Shown in pieces: positions 7,321 through 62,058 of a stretch of DNA of 64,000 nucleotides. The DNA comes from a virus (taxonomy: Duplodnaviria; Heunggongvirae; Uroviricota; Caudoviricetes). The stretch's first letter is position 1; every line of letters begins with the position of its first letter. The DNA lies in IMG/VR virus record IMGVR_UViG_2675903278_000002, one strand, 5' to 3'. The position numbers were made by a program, and so were the translations under genes. Under the pieces are notes generated by a model. That model was not told the DNA's origin. It saw only the letters and a program-made list of their open reading frames with translations, and ran no database searches.

Positions 7321-7740
7321 ATGTTTAGTGAAATGTTGCTTGAAGATGAACTGGATCGGAAAACAACAGAGGCTTTGATTCGTGTAGCGGACGAACATTC
7401 CCGGTCGCTTATGAGCGATCGAGAGGCTCGTCTGGCTATTCGTGCCATATTCGAAACTGCGCAGGGGCTTGTTGGTACACAAGTGGGTGAAGCCATTAAC
7501 ATCGCCATGTCTCAGTTCAGTGAAGGCAGTAAAAAGCCTCTGTTTCCTATGCATTTGATGCTGGCTGGTGGCTCGGTGCTTTATATCTCTGTTTGTCTGG
7601 ATAGCAACCAAATCAATATTCTCAACACTGTGTCAGGTAAGTGGAAAGATCCGATTGTCTGTGAAACCAGTGAAGAAACTTTGAAAAAAGCGGCTCAATT
7701 TGTACGTAGCGCACTACTTAAGGGCGCTAAGAAGTTGTAA
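7321..7740 (+). CDS. hypothetical protein
   Basis: 139 aa ORF, ATG preceded by A-rich RBS region; no recognisable motif. Confidence 0.65.
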   Translation: MFSEMLLEDELDRKTTEALIRVADEHSRSLMSDREARLAIRAIFETAQGLVGTQVGEAINIAMSQFSEGSKKPLFPMHLMLAGGSVLYISVCLDSNQINILNTVSGKWKDPIVCETSEETLKKAAQFVRSALLKGAKKL

Positions 7741-7749
7741 GGAGTTCTG

Positions 7750-8307
7750 ATGACAACGATTGTTGCAGGCATCGATATCGAGTCTACGGGACTGGATTTC
7801 CTTGCTGGTCATAAAATTATTGAAATCGCAATTACCCGCTATGAACTGGAGACACAGAGACATATTGATAGTCTGGAGATGCGTTTTAACCCTCGCAGAA
7901 ACATAGATCCGAAAGCTCAAGCCGTTCATGGCATTTCATTGGAACAGCTCGCAGCTGAACCTTTGTTGTCAAATCATGCCAGCGAAATTGGCGCTTATAT
8001 GGGGGCATGTAGTGTGTGGGTTGCTCATAACGGCGAAGCATTTGATATACCATTTATTCGACACGAGTTTTCAGGGTATGGAGTAAGACTGCCAGAAGTT
8101 CCTGTTATAGATACTATGTTATCGGGATTGTGGGCCACAGAAGACGGTAAACGTCCCCGCCTTGAAGAGTTGGCCTTCTCTCTTGGCTTTATATACGATC
8201 ATGCCAAAGCACATAGTGCCTTATATGACACAAACTTAATGATGCAATGCTTCTTTAAGGCACGTAATAAGTACGGATTTTTTAAATTACCCTCTGAAAT
8301 TGTGTAA
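7750..8307 (+). CDS. DnaQ-like 3'-5' exonuclease (DEDDh family)
   Basis: 185 aa; Exo I GIDIESTGLD, Exo II VAHNGEAFDIPF, Exo III HSALYDT; RBS AGGAG; hairpin terminator follows. Confidence 0.85.
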   Translation: MTTIVAGIDIESTGLDFLAGHKIIEIAITRYELETQRHIDSLEMRFNPRRNIDPKAQAVHGISLEQLAAEPLLSNHASEIGAYMGACSVWVAHNGEAFDIPFIRHEFSGYGVRLPEVPVIDTMLSGLWATEDGKRPRLEELAFSLGFIYDHAKAHSALYDTNLMMQCFFKARNKYGFFKLPSEIV

Positions 8308-8311
8308 AACA

Positions 8312-8349
8312 AAAGCCTACTTTAAAAAGTTTAAAGTAGGCTTTCTTTT
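8312..8349 (+). terminator. rho-independent terminator
   Basis: 13-bp stem AAAGCCTACTTTA/TAAAGTAGGCTTT, loop, then CTTTT tract directly after exonuclease gene. Confidence 0.75.
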
Positions 8350-8465
8350 AAAGAACAGTCGCCTTTCAATCATTTCCTGCCTGTATTTAATACTTTTCCG
8401 CCTGATAGGTTTAGTCAAAATGTAGCCATCGAAACGCAAATGTAACCAAACAGAAGGAGACTTAC

Positions 8466-9275
8466 ATGAGTTCGGTTGAAAATGTAATGACAAATGATGA
8501 TCTGGACGAGCTGACAGCCATGTTGCAATCACTTGATGAACCAGTAAAAAAAGCTGCACAGGTTGAAAATACTGATGATATTGACGATCTGCTGCTCGGC
8601 CTAGATGCTGGCGTAGCCATGAGTTCTGATGATGTTGCCGAAGAACTGTTCAATGAAGAAAAAGCAGGTGATTTCAGCTCTGCTTTAAATGAGTTGGAGT
8701 TAGCGCATGAGCCTATAAACGTAATTAACGCTGAAAGTGTTGAAGCTGCCGAAAACGAGCCAGAACAATTGGGATTTATTGAGGTTGAAGAGTGTGTTGA
8801 GGTTAATGATGAATTAAAAGTTCAACAGTCAAATGATAGCAATACAAATAAAAAAGCTCGTGCTGCAAGAGGTCCTCGTTTTACTTTAAGTGATAAAGAT
8901 GATTCGTTTTTCAATAAAGCGGGCTTAGAAAAAGATATTTTCTTAGACGCTTACGATAACGCGCCTGTCAAAGCAAAGGATAAGATATTAAACCTTCTTA
9001 ATTGGTTTAGCGGAGGTCCAGATATTAGTGTTTACACGGTAATTTCCATGAGACACCTTCTCACAGAAAAGAAGGCTACAAGTAATAGTATTAAGATTGC
9101 TTTAATGAGCAATCCAGAAAAACCGTATCCGCTTAACACTGCGTCAACTCAGGCTGGGCAAATGATGGCTGTATTTCCAGCGACAGGAATTGCCGTTAGA
9201 GGCGGTGGAAATCTAACATTGAACGAAGAATCACCGATCGTTAAGAAGTTTGTCGCGGAGTACACTATTGGATGA
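8466..9275 (+). CDS. hypothetical protein with strongly acidic N-terminal half
   Basis: 269 aa; RBS AAGGAG; first ~120 aa very rich in D/E; upstream of Dam-like gene. Confidence 0.7.
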   Translation: MSSVENVMTNDDLDELTAMLQSLDEPVKKAAQVENTDDIDDLLLGLDAGVAMSSDDVAEELFNEEKAGDFSSALNELELAHEPINVINAESVEAAENEPEQLGFIEVEECVEVNDELKVQQSNDSNTNKKARAARGPRFTLSDKDDSFFNKAGLEKDIFLDAYDNAPVKAKDKILNLLNWFSGGPDISVYTVISMRHLLTEKKATSNSIKIALMSNPEKPYPLNTASTQAGQMMAVFPATGIAVRGGGNLTLNEESPIVKKFVAEYTIG

Positions 9276-9428
9276 CGTTCCCCTACTGAAAATAAAGCCC
9301 ATAGAGAGCTTTATAGTGCTGGGTAAGCCAATCACATACCCAGCACCACAAAAACGCGCCAGAGAGCTTCTCGTTTGCATTTCTGGCGCGTTTTATTTGA
9401 TTGCCAGACATAAAATCAAATGCAAAAA

Positions 9429-9448
9429 TAGGTATTTACTTACCTATC
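9429..9448. repeat. class-B palindrome (ATAGGTAnnTACTTACCTAT family)
   Basis: ATAGGTATTTACTTACCTAT just upstream of the Dam-like gene; same family at ten other intergenic sites. Confidence 0.6.
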
Positions 9449-9458
9449 GAGAAAGAAG

Positions 9459-10052
9459 ATGATTGCAGCCGAAAAAATCAAACAGCGAAAGCGCGACAAC
9501 TCTCTTCGTGACCTCTGGAGAACACCTGACTGGCTGTTTTCTGCCATTCAACGTTATCTTGGAGTGACATTTGATGTTGACGTTGCCTGCAACAAGGACA
9601 ATGCAAAGCTGCCTAATTTCATAGGCGTTGAGCGTGATGCTTTGAAATCTGAATGGGGACAGCCAGGTACAATTGCCTTCCTCAATCCACCCTACTCCAA
9701 AATCTCCCCCTGGATTGATGCGGCTATACGTGAGCAGGCTCGCGGAGTTACAACAGTGATGCTAATTCCTCAATCCCTAGATACAAAGTGGTATGAGCGT
9801 GCAACAGAGTGTGCGAATGAGACGATTATTCTGTCTGGTGGCCGCGTAGCGTTTGTCGAGCCTGACGTCAATCTGGGTCAGGTAGAAGTAAACATCAACC
9901 CAGGTGGCAGTATGCTCGTTGTTTTTCGAGGATTCTGTCAGGACGCTGGGCACTCTATAAGCAAGATCCCTTTGGACGTCATGAAAAGTCTGGGAGGGTA
10001 TGATCCTGCGAATGTGATCAGGAAAAAAAGACCATCAAAGAAGGCTGCTTAG
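9459..10052 (+). CDS. dam: DNA N6-adenine methyltransferase (phage Dam-like)
   Basis: 197 aa; catalytic NPPYS (AFLNPPYSKISPW); size and motif order fit small phage Dam enzymes. Confidence 0.8.
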   Translation: MIAAEKIKQRKRDNSLRDLWRTPDWLFSAIQRYLGVTFDVDVACNKDNAKLPNFIGVERDALKSEWGQPGTIAFLNPPYSKISPWIDAAIREQARGVTTVMLIPQSLDTKWYERATECANETIILSGGRVAFVEPDVNLGQVEVNINPGGSMLVVFRGFCQDAGHSISKIPLDVMKSLGGYDPANVIRKKRPSKKAA

Positions 10053-10074
10053 TTTGTTCTGGCGTCTGTAATTA

Positions 10075-10131
10075 GCCTGCTTCTGTATATATAAATAACT
10101 ACATATTAATTATTAATATACGGAAGCAGGC
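10075..10131. repeat. long AT-rich hairpin element, copy 1 of 2
   Basis: GCCTGCTTCTG ... CGGAAGCAGGC inverted arms around an AT-rich loop; near-identical element at ~39561-39616. Confidence 0.7.
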
Positions 10132-10213
10132 TGTTTTGTATCAGAGACTCCAGACCTGAACATCACTACAGAATCCACTAGAACCCCTTCCCAGACGCTT
10201 TAAAATCGATTTT

Positions 10214-10469: not shown

Positions 10470-10998
10470 AGATAAGTACAAACTATTCATAAAGTGAATT
10501 GTAAGTGCTAAGATCTGATAGTTTCCAGTCGTAGACTGGAGACTCGACCTGATGGGTGGGGGTAAGCGTCACTGGCGTCAGGTTTAAAAAAGCTCACTAC
10601 CAGCGTAGAACCGGTGCCGTTTAGGTGTCGGGGAAGGGGGAACCAAAGTGAGCGGAGACAAGGGTCACTTTATGATTGTCGAGTCTGGGGTGTTTCGAGA
10701 GGTTGAATCCAGTACTCCCCTTCATAAAGTGTGGGAAGATCTCGGTTCTGGGGTGCTGTCATCCATAACTTCCCAAGTCTAAGCTGGCAGTAGACTTAGG
10801 CCATAACTTTTCAGGTTATGAAACGACCAGGTTGGTGAGGGATTTTTATACTCACCTCCCTGGGAGAGTATTACCTGAAAAGACAACCTCTCACTTCGTT
10901 CGAGGTGAACTTCACTCACTTCGTTCGTTCAGTTCAGGTTTATAAAAACCTGTTCTGGGAAGTAATTTGTTTATTTTAATAATTATTAACACGCACGC
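10470..10998. other. ~0.5 kb non-coding region with multiple hairpins and short direct repeats
   Basis: No ORF >60 aa; complementary segments (GTAGACTGGAGACTCGAC ... GTCGAGTCTGG), TCACTTCGTTCG x2, GC palindrome CACGCACGCGTGTGCGCACGCGCG at the 3' end; no tRNA cloverleaf found. Confidence 0.4.
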
Positions 10999-11052: not shown

Positions 11053-11646
11053 ATGACGACGAAGACACCAGCCCGATCGCAAGAAAAAACTCGCAAAAAA
11101 GCCAAAAACAAAAATTCTCCCCGCACCAATTCCACAACGCCTGTCGTAGAGTTCAATCCCCAGCTTAAAACCGTGAAAATCTTCAGTGATGGCTCTTGCC
11201 TTAAAAATCCGGGTGGCCCGGGCGGTTACGGTATAGTTCTCCAGTATCGTGGTGAGGAACGCGAGTTCTCAGATGGTTTTCATAGCACCACCAATAACCG
11301 CATGGAGATGATGGGGGCACTTATCGGGCTGGAGCGTTTGAAATATCCATGCAACGTTATTTTGCACTCTGATAGCCAGTATCTGAAAAACGGCATGACA
11401 CAGTGGATGAAATGGTGGAAACGCAATGGATGGGTGACTTCTGACAAAAAACCGGTAAAGAATGTTGATCTGTGGAAGCGTCTGGATGAGGCTGCAAGTC
11501 GACATAATGTTCGCTGGAAGTGGGTTAAAGGTCACGCCGGGCATCGTGAAAATGAAATATGTGATCGACTCGCGAAGATCGCAGCTTTTTCCGCAGCAGA
11601 TATGCCTCACAAGAAAGATATTGGTTTTGTTTACAACAAGCAGTAA
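11053..11646 (+). CDS. rnhA: ribonuclease HI
   Basis: [51 protein letters not shown] match RNase HI catalytic regions; basic N-terminal extension; in frame with track ORF 10999. Confidence 0.9.
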
Positions 11647-11791
11647 GTAAGTGTTTACCTATCATTTTAAATCATGTATCTTATCAGCGTCAGGATGACA
11701 ATGTGTCGGTAAGACACAGTTCCAGGATGGAACGAGAAAGGCGGCTGGCAATCGCCAGCCGCAACTCTTTCTGACACTGGATGGAGTCCAC

Positions 11792-12577: not shown

Positions 12578-13003
12578 ATGTTAGGTTTCTTCAAAAAGAA
12601 AACTCGTAAAGCTGTTATCGAAGTCAAAAAAATGGAGAACCGTGATGCGGTTGAGGCCACCGTGTGGGGCGCGTACATGATCTCCTATGCCGACGGCACA
12701 TGTGACGCAAAAGAAATTGCCATTCTTGAGAAGACAATTGCAGCTCTGCCTGCGTTTTCTCCGTTTGCTGGTGAAATTGCCCAAATGAGCGCCAATATCC
12801 GTGCTCGTTACGAAGCGTCCCCTCGTTCTGCTAATGCACAGGCTATTCGTGAGCTGTCTGATATTGCGGGTACTCCAGAGGCGGTCGATGTTCTGTGTCT
12901 GTGCCTTGATATTGCCGACCAAGACGGTATTGGCGAACAAGAAGAGCTGGCCCTGAAAAAGATCGCACAGGCGCTTCAGTTGTCACTGGATGCTTATCTC
13001 TAA
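12578..13003 (+). CDS. TerB-like (tellurite-resistance TerB domain) protein
   Basis: 141 aa; two helical halves each with acidic DG...EE pattern (ISYADGTCDAKEIAILE; DIADQDGIGEQEELALKKIA) resembling TerB; motif-level only. Confidence 0.6.
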   Translation: MLGFFKKKTRKAVIEVKKMENRDAVEATVWGAYMISYADGTCDAKEIAILEKTIAALPAFSPFAGEIAQMSANIRARYEASPRSANAQAIRELSDIAGTPEAVDVLCLCLDIADQDGIGEQEELALKKIAQALQLSLDAYL

Positions 13004-14927: not shown

Positions 14928-16613
14928 ATGAATACAGCCCTTTCCATCATCGACGATGCCAACTCAAACACTGCTATCGACTATCGGCAGGAAATGAACG
15001 TCATCCACGAAATTGTGGCCGAGTGCGAGAAAGAGATCGCCTTCATGTATCAGGTACACGACTTCGTTTATGGCGACGAACGCCACAACATGATTAATCG
15101 CCTGCTGAGACTAAACCATCGACCAGATGAAGATCGCTCGCGTTTAAATCGAGGTTGGTTGGATAAAGTCGATCTGGAATGGGTGAAACAGAATATTTGG
15201 GCCGAGTACTGGAGGAAGGTCACGGACATGACTAACGTTTTGCTGATCATGCCAGCTTCCCGTCGAGATGAGTGGCGCGAGCAGTTTATAGAGGGCAAAC
15301 AGGAAGTCATCAAAACTGACAGAACCGGCTACCAGATGAAGGTTAAAGAGTTCGTTGGTGTACCGGAGTTCAAAGCAGAAACGGTCATACCCACGATGCT
15401 TAATTTGCTGAATGACAGGCACAAATATCTCTCTGAGCGCGTGTATGGCTTGTTTAAGGCGCTGAGTCCTGCGCACAAGACAAATAAGACAAACGGTTTC
15501 AGCGAACGTCTGATAATCGCTGACTGCATTTCTGATTTCTGGCGGGACAGCGTTAGTGTGAACTATCGCAAAGAGGACTATATCGACGATCTGCGTGTCT
15601 TGCTTCATTTCTTCGCGCACAAAGAATTTATTACCATCAACCGCACTGCTGAGGTGCTATCAGCTGCGTATCGGGCAAACGACTGCCAGACCGGTGACTG
15701 GATGAACGTCGATGGAAATCTAATGCGCGTGAAGATGTTCAAGAACGGCAACGTTCACTTTGAAATACATCCTGACGTGGCCTGGAAGTTGAATGAGGTG
15801 CTGGCTTACAGTATGCCTGCTGCAATCCCCGCGCCATGTCGCACCGCGCCAAAAACACGGGCACCAAAGCAGTTCGGGTTAATCCAGAAGACGATCTCCG
15901 TGCCGGTTCGCACTGCGCTTCGTGACGGGCGATTAAGCAAAGACAAAGGCGTATGGTACTTCTCTGATTCAGCTCTCCAGAAGTCGCAGGTGGAAGAGCT
16001 TGAGCGCACACTGAGCTTCATTGGCGGCGTGCAGGAGAAAAAGCACTGGCAGTTCCCGTATGAGATCGGCCATACGCTAAATACGATTGTGGCTACCGGA
16101 TTAATACCGGATACAAAATCACACCAGTTCTACCCTACCCCACGCTTGATTGCTGAGTACGTTGCCAGAGCCACTGAATTGAAGTCTGGTGAGAAGCTGC
16201 TGGAGCCTCAAGCCGGACGTGGGGATCTTCTGGCCTATATCAACGCCGATCTGGAAGATGTTACCTGCATAGAAATCGCACCTCTCTTCGCTGATATCCT
16301 GCGCGGAAAAGGGTATACGAACACGATTTGCTGCGACTTCATAAAGTGGTCTGAGGACAACGTAGGTTATCAGTTCGACAAAATCGTTATGAACCCGCCG
16401 TACTCGCTTGGTCGTCATAGAGAGCACACGCTGGCTGCGCTGGGGCATCTGAAAGTCGGCGGGCGTCTTGTAGCAGTATTGCCGGGCACTGCGCCAATAC
16501 TGGACTGGATGACGATGGATAATTACGTTTATGCCAGAGGGAAGTCGTTTACCAACGAGTTTGAAGACACAGGGATCACAGTCAGCGTATACGTTTTCAA
16601 ACGCGTTAAATGA
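14928..16613 (+). CDS. putative DNA methyltransferase with large N-terminal domain of unknown function
   Basis: 561 aa; C-terminal third has SAM-binding-like LEPQAGRGDL and catalytic IVMNPPYS; first ~330 aa unrecognised. Confidence 0.75.
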   Translation: MNTALSIIDDANSNTAIDYRQEMNVIHEIVAECEKEIAFMYQVHDFVYGDERHNMINRLLRLNHRPDEDRSRLNRGWLDKVDLEWVKQNIWAEYWRKVTDMTNVLLIMPASRRDEWREQFIEGKQEVIKTDRTGYQMKVKEFVGVPEFKAETVIPTMLNLLNDRHKYLSERVYGLFKALSPAHKTNKTNGFSERLIIADCISDFWRDSVSVNYRKEDYIDDLRVLLHFFAHKEFITINRTAEVLSAAYRANDCQTGDWMNVDGNLMRVKMFKNGNVHFEIHPDVAWKLNEVLAYSMPAAIPAPCRTAPKTRAPKQFGLIQKTISVPVRTALRDGRLSKDKGVWYFSDSALQKSQVEELERTLSFIGGVQEKKHWQFPYEIGHTLNTIVATGLIPDTKSHQFYPTPRLIAEYVARATELKSGEKLLEPQAGRGDLLAYINADLEDVTCIEIAPLFADILRGKGYTNTICCDFIKWSEDNVGYQFDKIVMNPPYSLGRHREHTLAALGHLKVGGRLVAVLPGTAPILDWMTMDNYVYARGKSFTNEFEDTGITVSVYVFKRVK

Positions 16614-16633
16614 TAGGTAAATACTTACCTAAT
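16613..16633. repeat. class-B palindrome
   Basis: ATAGGTAAATACTTACCTAAT, near-perfect palindrome directly after the methyltransferase stop. Confidence 0.6.
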
Positions 16634-40364: not shown

Positions 40365-41620
40365 TGGCAATCCCGTCCTCGCTCAGTCTTGTGCAACTGC
40401 ATTCTGGACAGATGAAAGTCTTCCAGTCTCCGCATCGATTTAAAGTTGTTTGTGCTGGTCGACGCTGGGGAAAATCCCGGTTGTCGATCTCCACTATTAT
40501 TCGTGCGGCGGCAAAGGAAAAAAAGCAAAGAGTCTGGTATGTCGCTCCTACTTACCAGATGGCTCGCCAGATTTTGTGGGACGATCTACAGGAAGTTCTG
40601 CCTCGTAAGTGGGTTAGGAAAAAGAACGACACCACGATGACAATCGTGTTGAAGAACGGTTCGGAGATCGCCCTCAAAGGTGCTGATAAGCCTGACACTC
40701 TGCGCGGCGTAGCGTTGCATTTTGTAGTGCTTGATGAATTTCAGGATATGAAGGCTGACACCTGGTACAAGGTGTTACGACCTACTCTTTCATCGACACG
40801 CGGCGGTGCACTGATCATTGGTACGCCAAAAGGCTTCTCGGAATTTCACAAACTGTGGACTATAGGCCAGAACGTAGAGCTGCAAACAAAGGGACAGTGG
40901 AAGAGCTGGCAGTTTGTAACTGCCGATTCTCCGTTTGTACCTACGGCGGAAATTGAAGCTGCTAAGAACGATATGGACCCGAAATCGTTCGCTCAGGAGT
41001 ACCTGGCGAGCTTTGAGAACATGTCCGGGCGCGTTTACTACCCGTTCGATCGTAACGTGCATGTAAAACCGCTTCAGTTCAACCCTCGGTTGCCTATATG
41101 GGTAGGGCAGGACTTCAACATTGACCCGATGTCTTCAGTAATTTTGCAACCTCAGCCAAATGGTGAGCTATGGGCAATTGATGAATTGGTGCTCTTTTCC
41201 TCTAACACGGCAGAGGTTTGTGATGAGCTTGAGAGACGCTTCTGGCGCTGGAAATCACAGATAACGGTATTTCCAGATCCGGCAGGTGCTTATCGCCAAC
41301 ATGCTCGCGGGGAGTCTGACGTCGACATATTCAAAGAGAAGGGATTCTTACGTGTCGATTATTCGAAAAAGCACCCGCCAATTGCGGATCGTGTTAATGC
41401 TGTTAACCGAATGCTGATGACCGCATCTGGAGATATCCGGCTGTATATCGATCCGAAGTGCAAGCATTTGATTGATTCACTGGAAAAAGTCATCTACAAG
41501 CCTGGAACACGAGATATGGATAAGACAGGTGGCATTGAGCATAGTGCAGACGCATTGGGCTATCCAGTACATCGTAGGTATCCAGTCAAAAACCGTGTTA
41601 TTCTTGGTGGTTCTCGATAG
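40364..41620 (+). CDS. terminase large subunit
   Basis: 418 aa; Walker A VVCAGRRWGKS, Walker B VVLDEFQD, C-terminal nuclease-like acidic motifs (GQDFNIDP, FPDPAG). Confidence 0.85.
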   Translation: MAIPSSLSLVQLHSGQMKVFQSPHRFKVVCAGRRWGKSRLSISTIIRAAAKEKKQRVWYVAPTYQMARQILWDDLQEVLPRKWVRKKNDTTMTIVLKNGSEIALKGADKPDTLRGVALHFVVLDEFQDMKADTWYKVLRPTLSSTRGGALIIGTPKGFSEFHKLWTIGQNVELQTKGQWKSWQFVTADSPFVPTAEIEAAKNDMDPKSFAQEYLASFENMSGRVYYPFDRNVHVKPLQFNPRLPIWVGQDFNIDPMSSVILQPQPNGELWAIDELVLFSSNTAEVCDELERRFWRWKSQITVFPDPAGAYRQHARGESDVDIFKEKGFLRVDYSKKHPPIADRVNAVNRMLMTASGDIRLYIDPKCKHLIDSLEKVIYKPGTRDMDKTGGIEHSADALGYPVHRRYPVKNRVILGGSR

Positions 41621-41635
41621 GTAAGTAATTATCTA
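41618..41635. repeat. class-B palindrome
   Basis: TAGGTAAGTAATTATCTA overlapping the terminase stop, before portal gene. Confidence 0.55.
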
Positions 41636-41646
41636 AGGTTATTCAA

Positions 41647-43221
41647 ATGGAATTGAACGACAAACAAATTAAGGATCTGGTGGCGCGACGCCACCCGGAA
41701 TACGAAAAGAAAAAAGAACATTGGGACTTCCTCGCCAGCACTTACGCTGGCGGGCGTGGTTGGTTTACAGACAATATCTTTCGTTACTTTAAAGAGGGAG
41801 ATCAGGAGTTTAAGGAGCGAGTTGAACGTGCTTATCGCTTCAACCACACTCGTGAGGTGGTAAACCTCATCAACAAATATCTCTTTAAAGAAGACATTCA
41901 TAGAAATATCGAAGAGGCACCAGAGCAGATCCGCAATTTCTGGAAACGTGCGACTCGCCAGAATGCCTCTATTGACTCATTTATGGCCGCTATTGATTTG
42001 CAGTCGTCTATTTACGGTCGCATATGGGTTGTTGTCGATAGCACGATGAGTGGTGATGTTGAGTCAGTAGCTGACGAGAAAAAGAAAGATGCTCGCGCCT
42101 ACGCCTACTGGATTTCACCTCAGCAAATGCTGGATGTGGCATGGGACGACGACGGGAATATGTTGTGGGCGTTAATTGTGGAAGTCGCTCGTGATGACGC
42201 AGATCCTTTTACTTCTACAGGTCAGGAATACCAACGTTATCGTCTGTGGACACAAAACGAGTGGTATCTGTTCCGTGAGGAAGTGAAGAAGGGCGCTGGT
42301 GGAGCAGGTCGCCGTCAGGCAAAAGTTATTTTAGAGGATAGCGGTGAGCATAATCTCGGCGTAGTTCCTGTGTTTCCTGTTGATTGTATTGGAGAAAGTG
42401 AATCACCGTATTTCAGCCCATCGTTGATCGATGATATCGCTTATCTTGATCGTGCGGTTGCAAACTATCTGTCAAACCTTGATGCCATTATTCAGGATCA
42501 GACATTTAGCCAGTTGGCTATACCGGTACAGTCGCTTTTACCTGGTGATGAAAACCACACTAAAGTGCTTGAAATGGGCACAAAGCGAGTATTCACCTAC
42601 GATTCTGAAGGTGGAAACCAGCCGTTTTATCTGTCACCAGACCCGAAACAAGCTCAGATGATCATCACTACGATTAAGACGGTGATTAACGAAATCTACC
42701 ATTCAGTTGGTGTAGCTGGTGAGCGAACGAAGCAGGACAACGCACAGGGAATCGATAATTCATCTGGTGCCGCAAAAATGTATGACTTCCAGCGTGTAAA
42801 TAGCTTGCTTGTCACAAAAGCAGAGCGTCTGGAAAGGGCTGAACGCCAAATCATGCTACTGGTTGCGAAATGGATGGGGGTAGATCTGGACGAAGACCAC
42901 TCTTTAATTGCGTATCCAGAAAGTTTCGATATTCGTGGCCTTACTGATGAATTTTCTGTTGCCGAGAAACTGTCATTACTTCAGGCACCGGACTCTGTAC
43001 GTCGTCACCAGATGGAAATGCTTATTGAGAAGATTTTCCCGAACATTACTGAGGCGATGAAAAAGGAATTTGATAAAGATCTCTTGAATTTTCCTCCAAA
43101 AAATGATCTAAATACCCTTGAAAATAAGTCAGTACTTACTTATGATCGTGGTGCAGCCCAAGAAAGCGGGCAAGATCAACCCCGAGGGAATGGGGACTCA
43201 TCTACTCAAGAGAACGAGTGA
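41647..43221 (+). CDS. portal protein (putative)
   Basis: 524 aa; assignment by size and position between terminase and scaffold/capsid. Confidence 0.7.
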   Translation: MELNDKQIKDLVARRHPEYEKKKEHWDFLASTYAGGRGWFTDNIFRYFKEGDQEFKERVERAYRFNHTREVVNLINKYLFKEDIHRNIEEAPEQIRNFWKRATRQNASIDSFMAAIDLQSSIYGRIWVVVDSTMSGDVESVADEKKKDARAYAYWISPQQMLDVAWDDDGNMLWALIVEVARDDADPFTSTGQEYQRYRLWTQNEWYLFREEVKKGAGGAGRRQAKVILEDSGEHNLGVVPVFPVDCIGESESPYFSPSLIDDIAYLDRAVANYLSNLDAIIQDQTFSQLAIPVQSLLPGDENHTKVLEMGTKRVFTYDSEGGNQPFYLSPDPKQAQMIITTIKTVINEIYHSVGVAGERTKQDNAQGIDNSSGAAKMYDFQRVNSLLVTKAERLERAERQIMLLVAKWMGVDLDEDHSLIAYPESFDIRGLTDEFSVAEKLSLLQAPDSVRRHQMEMLIEKIFPNITEAMKKEFDKDLLNFPPKNDLNTLENKSVLTYDRGAAQESGQDQPRGNGDSSTQENE

Positions 43222-45039: not shown

Positions 45040-45059
45040 GTAGATAAGTAGTTATCTAT
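45040..45059. repeat. class-B palindrome
   Basis: GTAGATAAGTAGTTATCTAT after capsid gene. Confidence 0.55.
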
Positions 45060-62037: not shown

Positions 62038-62058
62038 AATAGGTAAGTATTTACTTAA
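62038..62058. repeat. class-B palindrome
   Basis: ATAGGTAAGTATTTACTTAAT between J-like gene and tail fibre gene; GGCGGG...CCCGCC hairpin follows. Confidence 0.55.

Follow-up and report, generated by a model that had tools for sequence, protein, structure and literature searches.

An orphan Dam-family adenine methyltransferase and an adjacent acidic-arm/winged-helix protein are probably independent genes of an SSU5-like phage-plasmid

Results

Gene content and genomic context of the locus

The window (the whole 64,000-nucleotide stretch of viral DNA that was analyzed) comes from an E. coli phage-plasmid of the SSU5/pHCM2-like type. It encodes terminase, portal, capsid, tape-measure and tail genes of the SSU5-like phage-plasmid type, in agreement with the original prediction that the methylase gene considered here is phage-borne. 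Four phage records match the segment 8300–10300 at 97.4–99.2% identity: Cyrano, PhiR41_1 and two records of Escherichia phage CMS-2020a. The methylase gene and the gene upstream of it, which codes for a strongly acidic protein, were found together in 177 PLSDB plasmids, 176 of which match the pair at 95% identity or more; these plasmids are ~105–120 kb in size and nearly all non-mobilizable. Cyrano, known in E. coli LF82 as the phage-plasmid pLF82, produces siphovirus particles and can be induced with ciprofloxacin (PMC9928086).

Both genes are located within a long co-directional block. The block starts with genes for RNR alpha/beta, MazG, ThyX, a PNK-like protein, DHFR and an AAA_28 P-loop protein. 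Downstream of these are a hypothetical gene and the gene for a Pol III epsilon-like exonuclease; the acidic-protein and methylase genes come next, and a small ORF and the RNase H gene follow them. The structural genes come later in the window. The features of the locus are as follows.

7750–8307, plus strand: Pol III epsilon-like 3'-5' exonuclease (RNase_T; PF00929, 6e-22)
8307–8349, plus strand: terminator-like hairpin and T-run just past the exonuclease stop codon (inverted repeat I2, 20-nt arms, 90% complementary, 3-nt loop)
8466–9275, plus strand: 269-aa protein of the uncharacterised family phrog_5235, with four regions delineated by composition, alignments and AF2
8490–8543, plus strand: conserved N-terminal short motif of this protein, aa 9–26, TNDDLDELTAMLQSLDEP (66% mean pairwise identity)
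8544–8846, plus strand: acidic linker of variable length, aa 27–127, predicted from identity, indels and pLDDT to be largely disordered
8889–9263, plus strand: C-terminal winged-helix domain, aa 142–266, basic, with ArsR/MarR-like topology
9351–9394, plus strand: intrinsic terminator hairpin downstream of the acidic-protein gene, with TTTTATTT after it (dG -26.2 kcal/mol, z -5.4)
9401–9429, plus strand: predicted sigma-70-like promoter site before the methylase gene (consensus scan; TTGCCA, 17 nt, AAAAAT, with TG before the -10 element)
9428–9447, no strand assigned: 20-bp palindrome ATAGGTATTTACTTACCTAT, located after the -10 site and before the methylase start codon; a copy of a dispersed intergenic motif
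9459–10052, plus strand: orphan phage Dam-family N6-adenine DNA methyltransferase, 197 aa (PF05869, TIGR01712)
10073–10133, plus strand: terminator-like long hairpin downstream of the methylase gene, with TGTTTTG after it (dG -29.8 kcal/mol, z -5.0)

The methylase is an orphan member of a known phage family

The methylase contains NPPYS at residues 76–80 (window positions 9684–9698), which conforms to catalytic motif IV, (D/N)PP(Y/F/W), and a D-x-A motif at positions 9579–9587. It matches the Pfam family PF05869 ('Dam') with an E-value of 2.5e-38 and 131.8 bits (cutoff 28.1) and the NCBIfam equivalog TIGR01712 ('phage_N6A_met') with 113.9 bits (cutoff 97.05), which confirms the original assignment as an NPPY-type N6-adenine methyltransferase. 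In an alignment of 19 sequences, D41, A43, N76, P77, Y79 and S80 do not vary, and P78 hardly does. The AF2 model (pLDDT 85) has the class I SAM-methyltransferase fold related to N6-adenine methylases; its closest folds are PCIF1, EcoDam, M.TaqI, DpnM and T4 Dam, N6-adenine methyltransferases thus being the best structural matches. A sequence search for solved structures detected none for any member of the methylase family.

The best PADLOC match of the protein is 'orphan methyltransferase'. Its neighbors are the winged-helix protein and an 84-aa ORF, the latter without a Pfam, NCBIfam or PADLOC match at the thresholds applied, and scans of the neighboring genes against the same three collections revealed no adjacent nuclease partner. 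The methylase is an orphan enzyme, without a cognate restriction endonuclease.

Homologs of the methylase are present in 1294 phage records, including those of Stx phages, T1-like phages and many Vibrio phages. T1 Dam and HP1 Dam are further phage Dam-family methyltransferases. In SSU5-like loci the methylase is a core gene, with 64–86% identity. It is already annotated as 'phage N-6-adenine-methyltransferase' in RefSeq plasmids and as 'Adenine methyltransferase' in Cyrano, and is an ordinary member of a large known phage family; a literature search found no paper on this enzyme or on the acidic protein from SSU5-like elements.

The methylase is 39% identical over 145 aa to orf32 of VT2-Sakai, which we take to be M.EcoVT2Dam; the database record for orf32 reads only 'similar to DNA methylase'. 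Like this and other phage Dam methyltransferases of the PF05869/TIGR01712 type (M.EcoVT2Dam being that of the Stx2 phage VT2-Sa), the window enzyme is a small, single-domain, phage-borne orphan with an NPPY motif. It differs in a C-terminal extra of ~35 aa that ends in the basic sequence KKRPSKKAA and is missing in the shorter, more distant P0276 and P0277. The genomic settings differ as well: the window enzyme is encoded in a replication/nucleotide-metabolism module of a phage-plasmid, whereas its VT2 relative belongs to the lambdoid nin region. GATC has been reported as the target of M.EcoVT2Dam (PMC6602927). The target of the window methylase is probably GATC-like as well, with the reservation that 39% identity to a GATC enzyme is too low for a safe transfer of specificity.

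GATC is tolerated and 6-bp palindromes are scarce

The window contains 277 GATC sites, an observed/expected ratio of 0.85, so this site is not avoided. Several 6-bp palindromes are nearly absent: AGCGCT occurs 0 times (18.8 expected), AAGCTT once (19.6 expected) and GGCGCC 0 times (14.6 expected). CTGCAG (1 observed, 16.2 expected) and GAATTC (0 observed, 10.2 expected) are similarly scarce. Given this scarcity, site avoidance is a visible anti-restriction strategy of the element. The tolerance of GATC is compatible with protection of these sites by methylation, which it does not prove, and an anti-restriction role of the methylase by itself would be plausible. If GATC is the target, the selective benefit is less evident, the host Dam of Enterobacteriaceae already making this mark.

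These observations also bear on an alternative function for the methylase, namely, that it mainly controls the element's own DNA transactions through packaging or replication marking, prevention of MutH or SeqA action, or epigenetic gene control. We regard this as a possible but minority reading. It is in line with the strong conservation of this core gene within a replication and nucleotide-metabolism module, with the frequency of GATC in the genome, and with the fact that the closest characterized relative targets a site that the enterobacterial host methylates itself. There is also a precedent in P1, another phage-plasmid, which uses Dam methylation for pac cleavage: P1 Dmt/Dam is a phage-plasmid adenine methylase with a documented role in this process. 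The window enzyme may be analogous to it as a phage-plasmid adenine methylase that presumably acts on the element's own DNA during lytic growth; the P1 enzyme, however, belongs to a different, much larger protein family. The distribution of GATC argues against such a role, as no pac/ori-like cluster was found near the methylase gene, and elsewhere the sites form only loose groups of 4–5 per 200 bp. Furthermore, the phage Dam family is widely viewed as consisting of protective orphan methylases.

The upstream protein combines an acidic flexible arm with a basic winged helix

As described in the original prediction, the N-terminal ~120 residues of the upstream protein are extremely rich in Asp and Glu. 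Residues 1–120 include 34 D/E and 4 K/R, for a net charge of -30, and among the open frames of at least 150 codons in the window this protein holds the most acidic 120-aa stretch. In contrast, the C-terminal 144 residues (aa 126–269) are basic, with a pI of 9.46 and a net charge of +5. The four regions are, in order, the N-terminal motif, the acidic segment, a basic patch ending in RF(T/S)L, and a conserved C-terminal domain. Mean pairwise identity is 66% in the motif, 26% in the linker, 43% in the basic patch and 68% in the winged helix. The acidic linker has accumulated many substitutions and indels and is the least conserved region of the protein.

The N-terminal motif reads DDLDELTAMLQSLDEP in alignments of close homologs, and comparable short motifs, such as DAELAALMADLDEE or DEIDAMLADIE, stand at the start of distant members as well. 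Such a motif was found within the first 70 aa in 97 of 181 family members, compared with 7 of 181 in a control segment. The motif is a candidate partner-binding helix.

AlphaFold predicts the C-terminal part of the protein with high pLDDT (85–96 for aa 140–269), and this domain has a winged-helix fold. No Pfam or NCBIfam match to a curated winged-helix sequence family was found, so the resemblance is one of fold only. The values drop to 29–38 at aa 81–130 and stay below 50 throughout aa 81–131, a region modeled without secondary structure; aa 1–80 are modeled as N-terminal helices at low confidence (53–82), and some folded acidic structure may exist there. No rigid DNA-shaped fold was predicted for the acidic domain.

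An exhaustive HMMER search with the C-terminal domain retrieved 251 representative clusters, defined at 50% identity. An N-terminal region of 30 aa or more is present in 184 hits; its net charge is -10 or lower in 156 of these (median -20). The close homologs form 55 clusters, almost all of them unnamed or labeled 'hypothetical'; many are encoded on ~100–120 kb contigs from Enterobacteriaceae. For functional annotation, searching for homologs with the family profile yielded 'hypothetical protein' as the only name. The protein itself had no Pfam match at E ≤ 0.01 and none in NCBIfam and PADLOC scans; a Pfam scan of 69 family members at E ≤ 0.1 yielded no consistent family. Comparison of the protein and of the 69-member profile with PDB chain sequences gave only noise (best E 0.02–0.4, in low-complexity stretches), and Foldseek retrieved no BFVD viral model at E ≤ 1e-3 and no match with an annotation. 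The acidic/winged-helix family is unstudied and widespread, with 251 clusters and no Pfam entry.

As judged from the alignments, the acidity of the N-terminal region is a conserved compositional trait of a flexible arm that joins two conserved modules. The pattern is one typical of a disordered tether and does not fit a rigid DNA-shaped surface. The acidic region had originally been read as a DNA mimic, a reading with which the charge of -30 over 120 aa and the family-wide retention of N-terminal acidity are consistent. Ocr (T7 gp0.3) and ArdA indeed share with this protein a very dense packing of Asp and Glu, over ~120 residues. DNA mimicry cannot be concluded from strong acidity alone; in known mimics, a rigid fold positions the charges precisely. 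Against the mimic reading, the protein has no sequence similarity to Ocr or ArdA (no match in Pfam, which includes both of their families, or in the PDB or PADLOC), and its acidic segment is either predicted to be disordered or modeled at low confidence, varies in length, is rich in indels and has the lowest conservation in the protein. Unlike Ocr and ArdA, the protein is not small and acidic throughout, the acidic part being fused to a basic winged-helix domain at the C-terminus, and it is tied to a replication exonuclease rather than to leading or early anti-defense regions.

Predicted transcription signals separate the two genes

The acidic protein was originally said to precede the methylase immediately. 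It is indeed the upstream neighbor on the same strand, but the two genes are separated by a 183-bp spacer that contains the terminator hairpin and the promoter-like site. The stability of the 9351–9394 hairpin was equaled by none of 200 shuffled sequences, and its stem shows compensatory changes in relatives, from GCGCCAGA/TCTGGCGC to GCGTCAGA/TCTGACGC, and GCACCAGA/TCTGGTGC. In the promoter-like site, TTGC, the extended -10 TG and AAAAAT are retained; both the covariation and the promoter conservation were read from seven SSU5-like spacers. The hairpin at 10073–10133 is inverted repeat I7, with 17-nt arms that are 94% complementary. Because terminator-like hairpins follow the exonuclease, acidic-protein and methylase genes, each of these genes is bracketed singly. 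According to these predicted signals, the methylase gene is a promoter–gene–terminator unit of its own. A search for iterons and direct repeats near the genes revealed chance-level repeats only.

In normalized RNA-seq data for LF82/Cyrano under lysogenic conditions, the acidic-protein gene (CYRAN_78) has a value of 10.7 and the methylase gene (CYRAN_79) one of 6.0; CYRAN_81, with 117, was rated by the authors as 12x the local background (PMC9928086). The low values for CYRAN_78 and CYRAN_79 place both genes near background in the plasmid state, which fits lytic-phase genes and not lysogenic-conversion morons.

A dispersed 20-bp palindrome lies upstream of the methylase gene

The 20-bp palindrome at 9428–9447 belongs to a dispersed motif of the form ATAGGTAAGTAnTTACCTAT. 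This motif occurs at 7 sites in the window (0.01 expected) and at 15 sites in the complete Cyrano genome (0 in 20 shuffled genomes). All 15 Cyrano copies are located at boundaries of co-directional genes, in both early and late regions, including terminase/portal, capsid, tail J/fiber, fiber/holin, UvsY/SSB, RuvC/NrdA, MazG/ThyX, RNase H and DUF4942. The palindrome is kept directly upstream of the methylase gene even in relatives with extra DNA or a longer spacer. The 9-mer TTACCTATC alone is not clearly enriched (16 matches, 8.9 expected; this number was reached in 1 of 100 shuffles). The palindrome may function as an operator, as a 5' RNA hairpin or in RNA processing; its presence ties the methylase gene into a genome-wide regulatory scheme of its own.

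Such a distribution raises the question of whether the acidic/winged-helix protein could be a dimeric regulator that binds the palindrome, upstream of the methylase gene and at ~14 other intergenic sites, and thereby controls methylase expression. An ArsR/MarR-like fold is commonly seen in dimeric proteins that recognize palindromic operators, the element is conserved at its position between the methylase -10 site and start codon, its 15 genomic copies compare with 0 expected, and both the recognition-helix residues and the palindrome are conserved across SSU5-like elements. On the other hand, the genome encodes at least five other annotated regulators or DNA-binding proteins, and the palindrome could act as an RNA hairpin or processing site. 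It is absent from the Nickievirus-like loci of distant phages that have the protein family, and a de novo search of the distant loci for exact-arm palindromes, an insensitive method, recovered no matching one. We consider this regulatory role improbable. The protein departs from the winged-helix regulators of the ArsR/SmtB, MarR, Fur and PadR types, which are not known to have a 140-aa acidic disordered N-terminal arm with a terminal motif.

In distant phages, the acidic protein is associated with the exonuclease and not with the methylase

The order exonuclease, acidic protein, methylase is maintained across 80 SSU5-like loci. At loci of this kind, the acidic protein is only 33–67% identical where the methylase is 64–86% identical. 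The spacing of the genes is not constant. Some relatives have an extra 1.07 kb between the acidic-protein and methylase genes, with a 225-aa ORF on the opposite strand, and others have ~0.65 kb at this position with a 174-aa ORF on the same strand; in further relatives, a 371-aa GTPase (MMR_HSR1 + DUF697) is encoded between the exonuclease and acidic-protein genes.

We also compared 13 distant loci that encode members of the acidic-protein family, from Nickievirus phages of Pseudomonas syringae and metagenomic phages of ~95–115 kb. In 12 of the 13, an RNase_T/epsilon exonuclease gene is located 1.3–3.5 kb upstream on the same strand; a PF05869-type methylase was found near none of the 13, within flanks of up to 6 kb. 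This difference (12/13 and 0/13) indicates that the deep evolutionary partner of the acidic protein is the replication module.

The proposal of a two-component anti-restriction locus, in which an Ocr/ArdA-like mimic would act together with the methylase, is not supported by these comparisons. In its favor, the two genes are adjacent throughout SSU5-like elements and the element invests in restriction evasion, many 6-bp palindromes being nearly gone. However, the genes are separated by a covarying terminator, a promoter-like site of the methylase's own and, in relatives, insertions, and distant phages pair the acidic family with the epsilon exonuclease and not with a Dam-type methylase. Taken with the properties of the acidic arm, these findings leave the mimic-based locus a very slim chance. 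The data do not support a joint anti-restriction unit; the acidic protein and the methylase are better described as two independent neighboring genes. Given the order kept at 80 loci, a lineage-specific functional link may nevertheless exist within the SSU5-like group.

Discussion

We consider it likely that the locus comprises two independent genes of a DNA-metabolism module: an orphan Dam-family methylase and a winged-helix protein whose acidic arm is not a DNA mimic. Under this interpretation, the methylase would be switched on in lytic growth and would methylate progeny phage DNA at a short adenine-containing site, for which GATC is the likeliest candidate by analogy with M.EcoVT2Dam, such that packaged genomes would be fully modified. 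The benefit might lie in shielding from restriction enzymes that are blocked by the methyl mark, for example, in new hosts; in escape from the problems of under-methylated DNA, such as MutH or SeqA action; or in effects on the control of replication or packaging. Protection from restriction and the maintenance of full methylation on fast-replicating DNA appear roughly equally likely.

For the acidic protein, the domain layout suggests that the winged helix binds DNA or a conserved partner, as winged helices can also serve as protein-binding modules, and that the acidic arm tethers an N-terminal motif that would recruit another protein. The arm may also fold back onto the basic domain, modulating its binding or causing self-inhibition. 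In that case, the protein would work in association with replication or transcription, as a factor of the early module to which the Pol III epsilon-like exonuclease also belongs. More specifically, and only as a tentative proposal with less than even chances, the family could provide an adaptor in ~100-kb siphophages and phage-plasmids that have their own Pol III alpha and epsilon, with a DNA-binding winged helix, possibly acting on the 20-bp palindrome, and a tethered motif that recruits a component of the replisome or RNA polymerase.

Several DNA-binding proteins with acidic disordered tails are known, among them HMGB1, T7 gp2.5 and bacterial SSB. The acidic protein may be analogous to these in combining a basic nucleic-acid-binding domain with an acidic flexible tail that carries a short partner-binding motif. 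It differs from all three in that its tail is N-terminal and much longer, and in that its binding domain is predicted to be a winged helix.

SSU5-like phage-plasmids are frequent in clinical Enterobacteriaceae. The target of the methylase, once known, would only refine the picture of their methylome. What remains of interest at the locus are the uncharacterised acidic-arm/winged-helix family, which tracks the Pol III epsilon exonuclease of phages, and the 20-bp palindrome, which marks ~15 gene-block boundaries genome-wide.

Genes and insertions of the module

Four further genes, of which the two conserved hypothetical genes belong to the module, lie on the same strand as the acidic-protein gene and the methylase gene:

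7321-7740 (+), conserved hypothetical gene, phrog_5373, 139 aa
10214-10468 (+), conserved hypothetical gene, phrog_5343
12578-13003 (+), TerB-like domain protein (PF05099, 1.6e-6), in the same co-directional block
14928-16613 (+), 561-aa DUF4942 protein (PF13708, 1.7e-20), ~5 kb downstream

The gene for the 139-aa protein is located directly 5' of the epsilon-like exonuclease gene, an arrangement always found in the SSU5-like loci. Neither the phrog_5373 nor the phrog_5343 gene had a match in Pfam, NCBIfam or PADLOC. The TerB-like protein is annotated in phage Cyrano as a P1 TciA-like protein. In L096, a distant metagenomic locus, the acidic/winged-helix gene likewise has a DUF4942 protein encoded downstream of it; this shared position suggests that the wider module order is old.

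Both gaps flanking the acidic-protein gene (8308-8465 and 9276-9458 in the window) are insertion hot spots among the relatives. The inserts, in the coordinates of the related loci that carry them, are as follows:

L035 4684-5799 (-), 371-aa GTPase (MMR_HSR1 and DUF697), with a weak PADLOC match to LeoBC
L042 7139-7816 (-), 225-aa ORF on the opposite strand
L077 6808-7332 (+), 174-aa ORF on the same strand, hydrophobic and Ala/Gly-rich

No family match was found for either the 225-aa or the 174-aa ORF.

C-terminal extension of the methylase

The methylases of the SSU5 group carry a C-terminal extension ending in the basic tail KKRPSKKAA; in the window methylase this is noted at residues 181–197 (9999-10052). 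The model of the extension has low confidence, and P0276 and P0277, two family members that are shorter and more distant, lack it. It may provide auxiliary contacts with DNA.

A small ORF matching a transcribed Cyrano gene in position

A 44-aa ORF at 10648-10782 (+) matches the Cyrano gene CYRAN_81 in position. In lysogenic E. coli LF82, CYRAN_81 is transcribed ~12-fold over the local prophage background, with a transcript value of 117 compared with 6–11 for neighbouring genes (PMC9928086). The 44-aa ORF is a candidate moron.

A repeated palindrome and restriction-site avoidance

With up to three mismatches allowed, the 20-bp palindrome ATAGGTAAGTAnTTACCTAT occurs at seven sites in the window (9428-9447, 11643-11662, 16613-16632, 41617-41636, 43124-43143, 45040-45059 and 62039-62058), against 0.01 expected, and the full Cyrano genome contains 15 copies. 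Every copy is positioned at the boundary between co-directional genes, in early and late regions alike, and the palindrome is kept in SSU5-like relatives. Operator, 5' RNA hairpin and processing site are all candidate roles.

A number of 6-bp palindromes occur far less often than expected, CTAG is also scarce (16 sites, 74 expected) and the GATC count is close to expectation, which points to passive restriction-site avoidance.

Occurrence of 6-bp palindromes in the whole window (observed; expected)
AGCGCT: 0; 18.8
AAGCTT: 1; 19.6
GGCGCC: 0; 14.6
CTGCAG: 1; 16.2
GAGCTC: 0; 10.7
GAATTC: 0; 10.2
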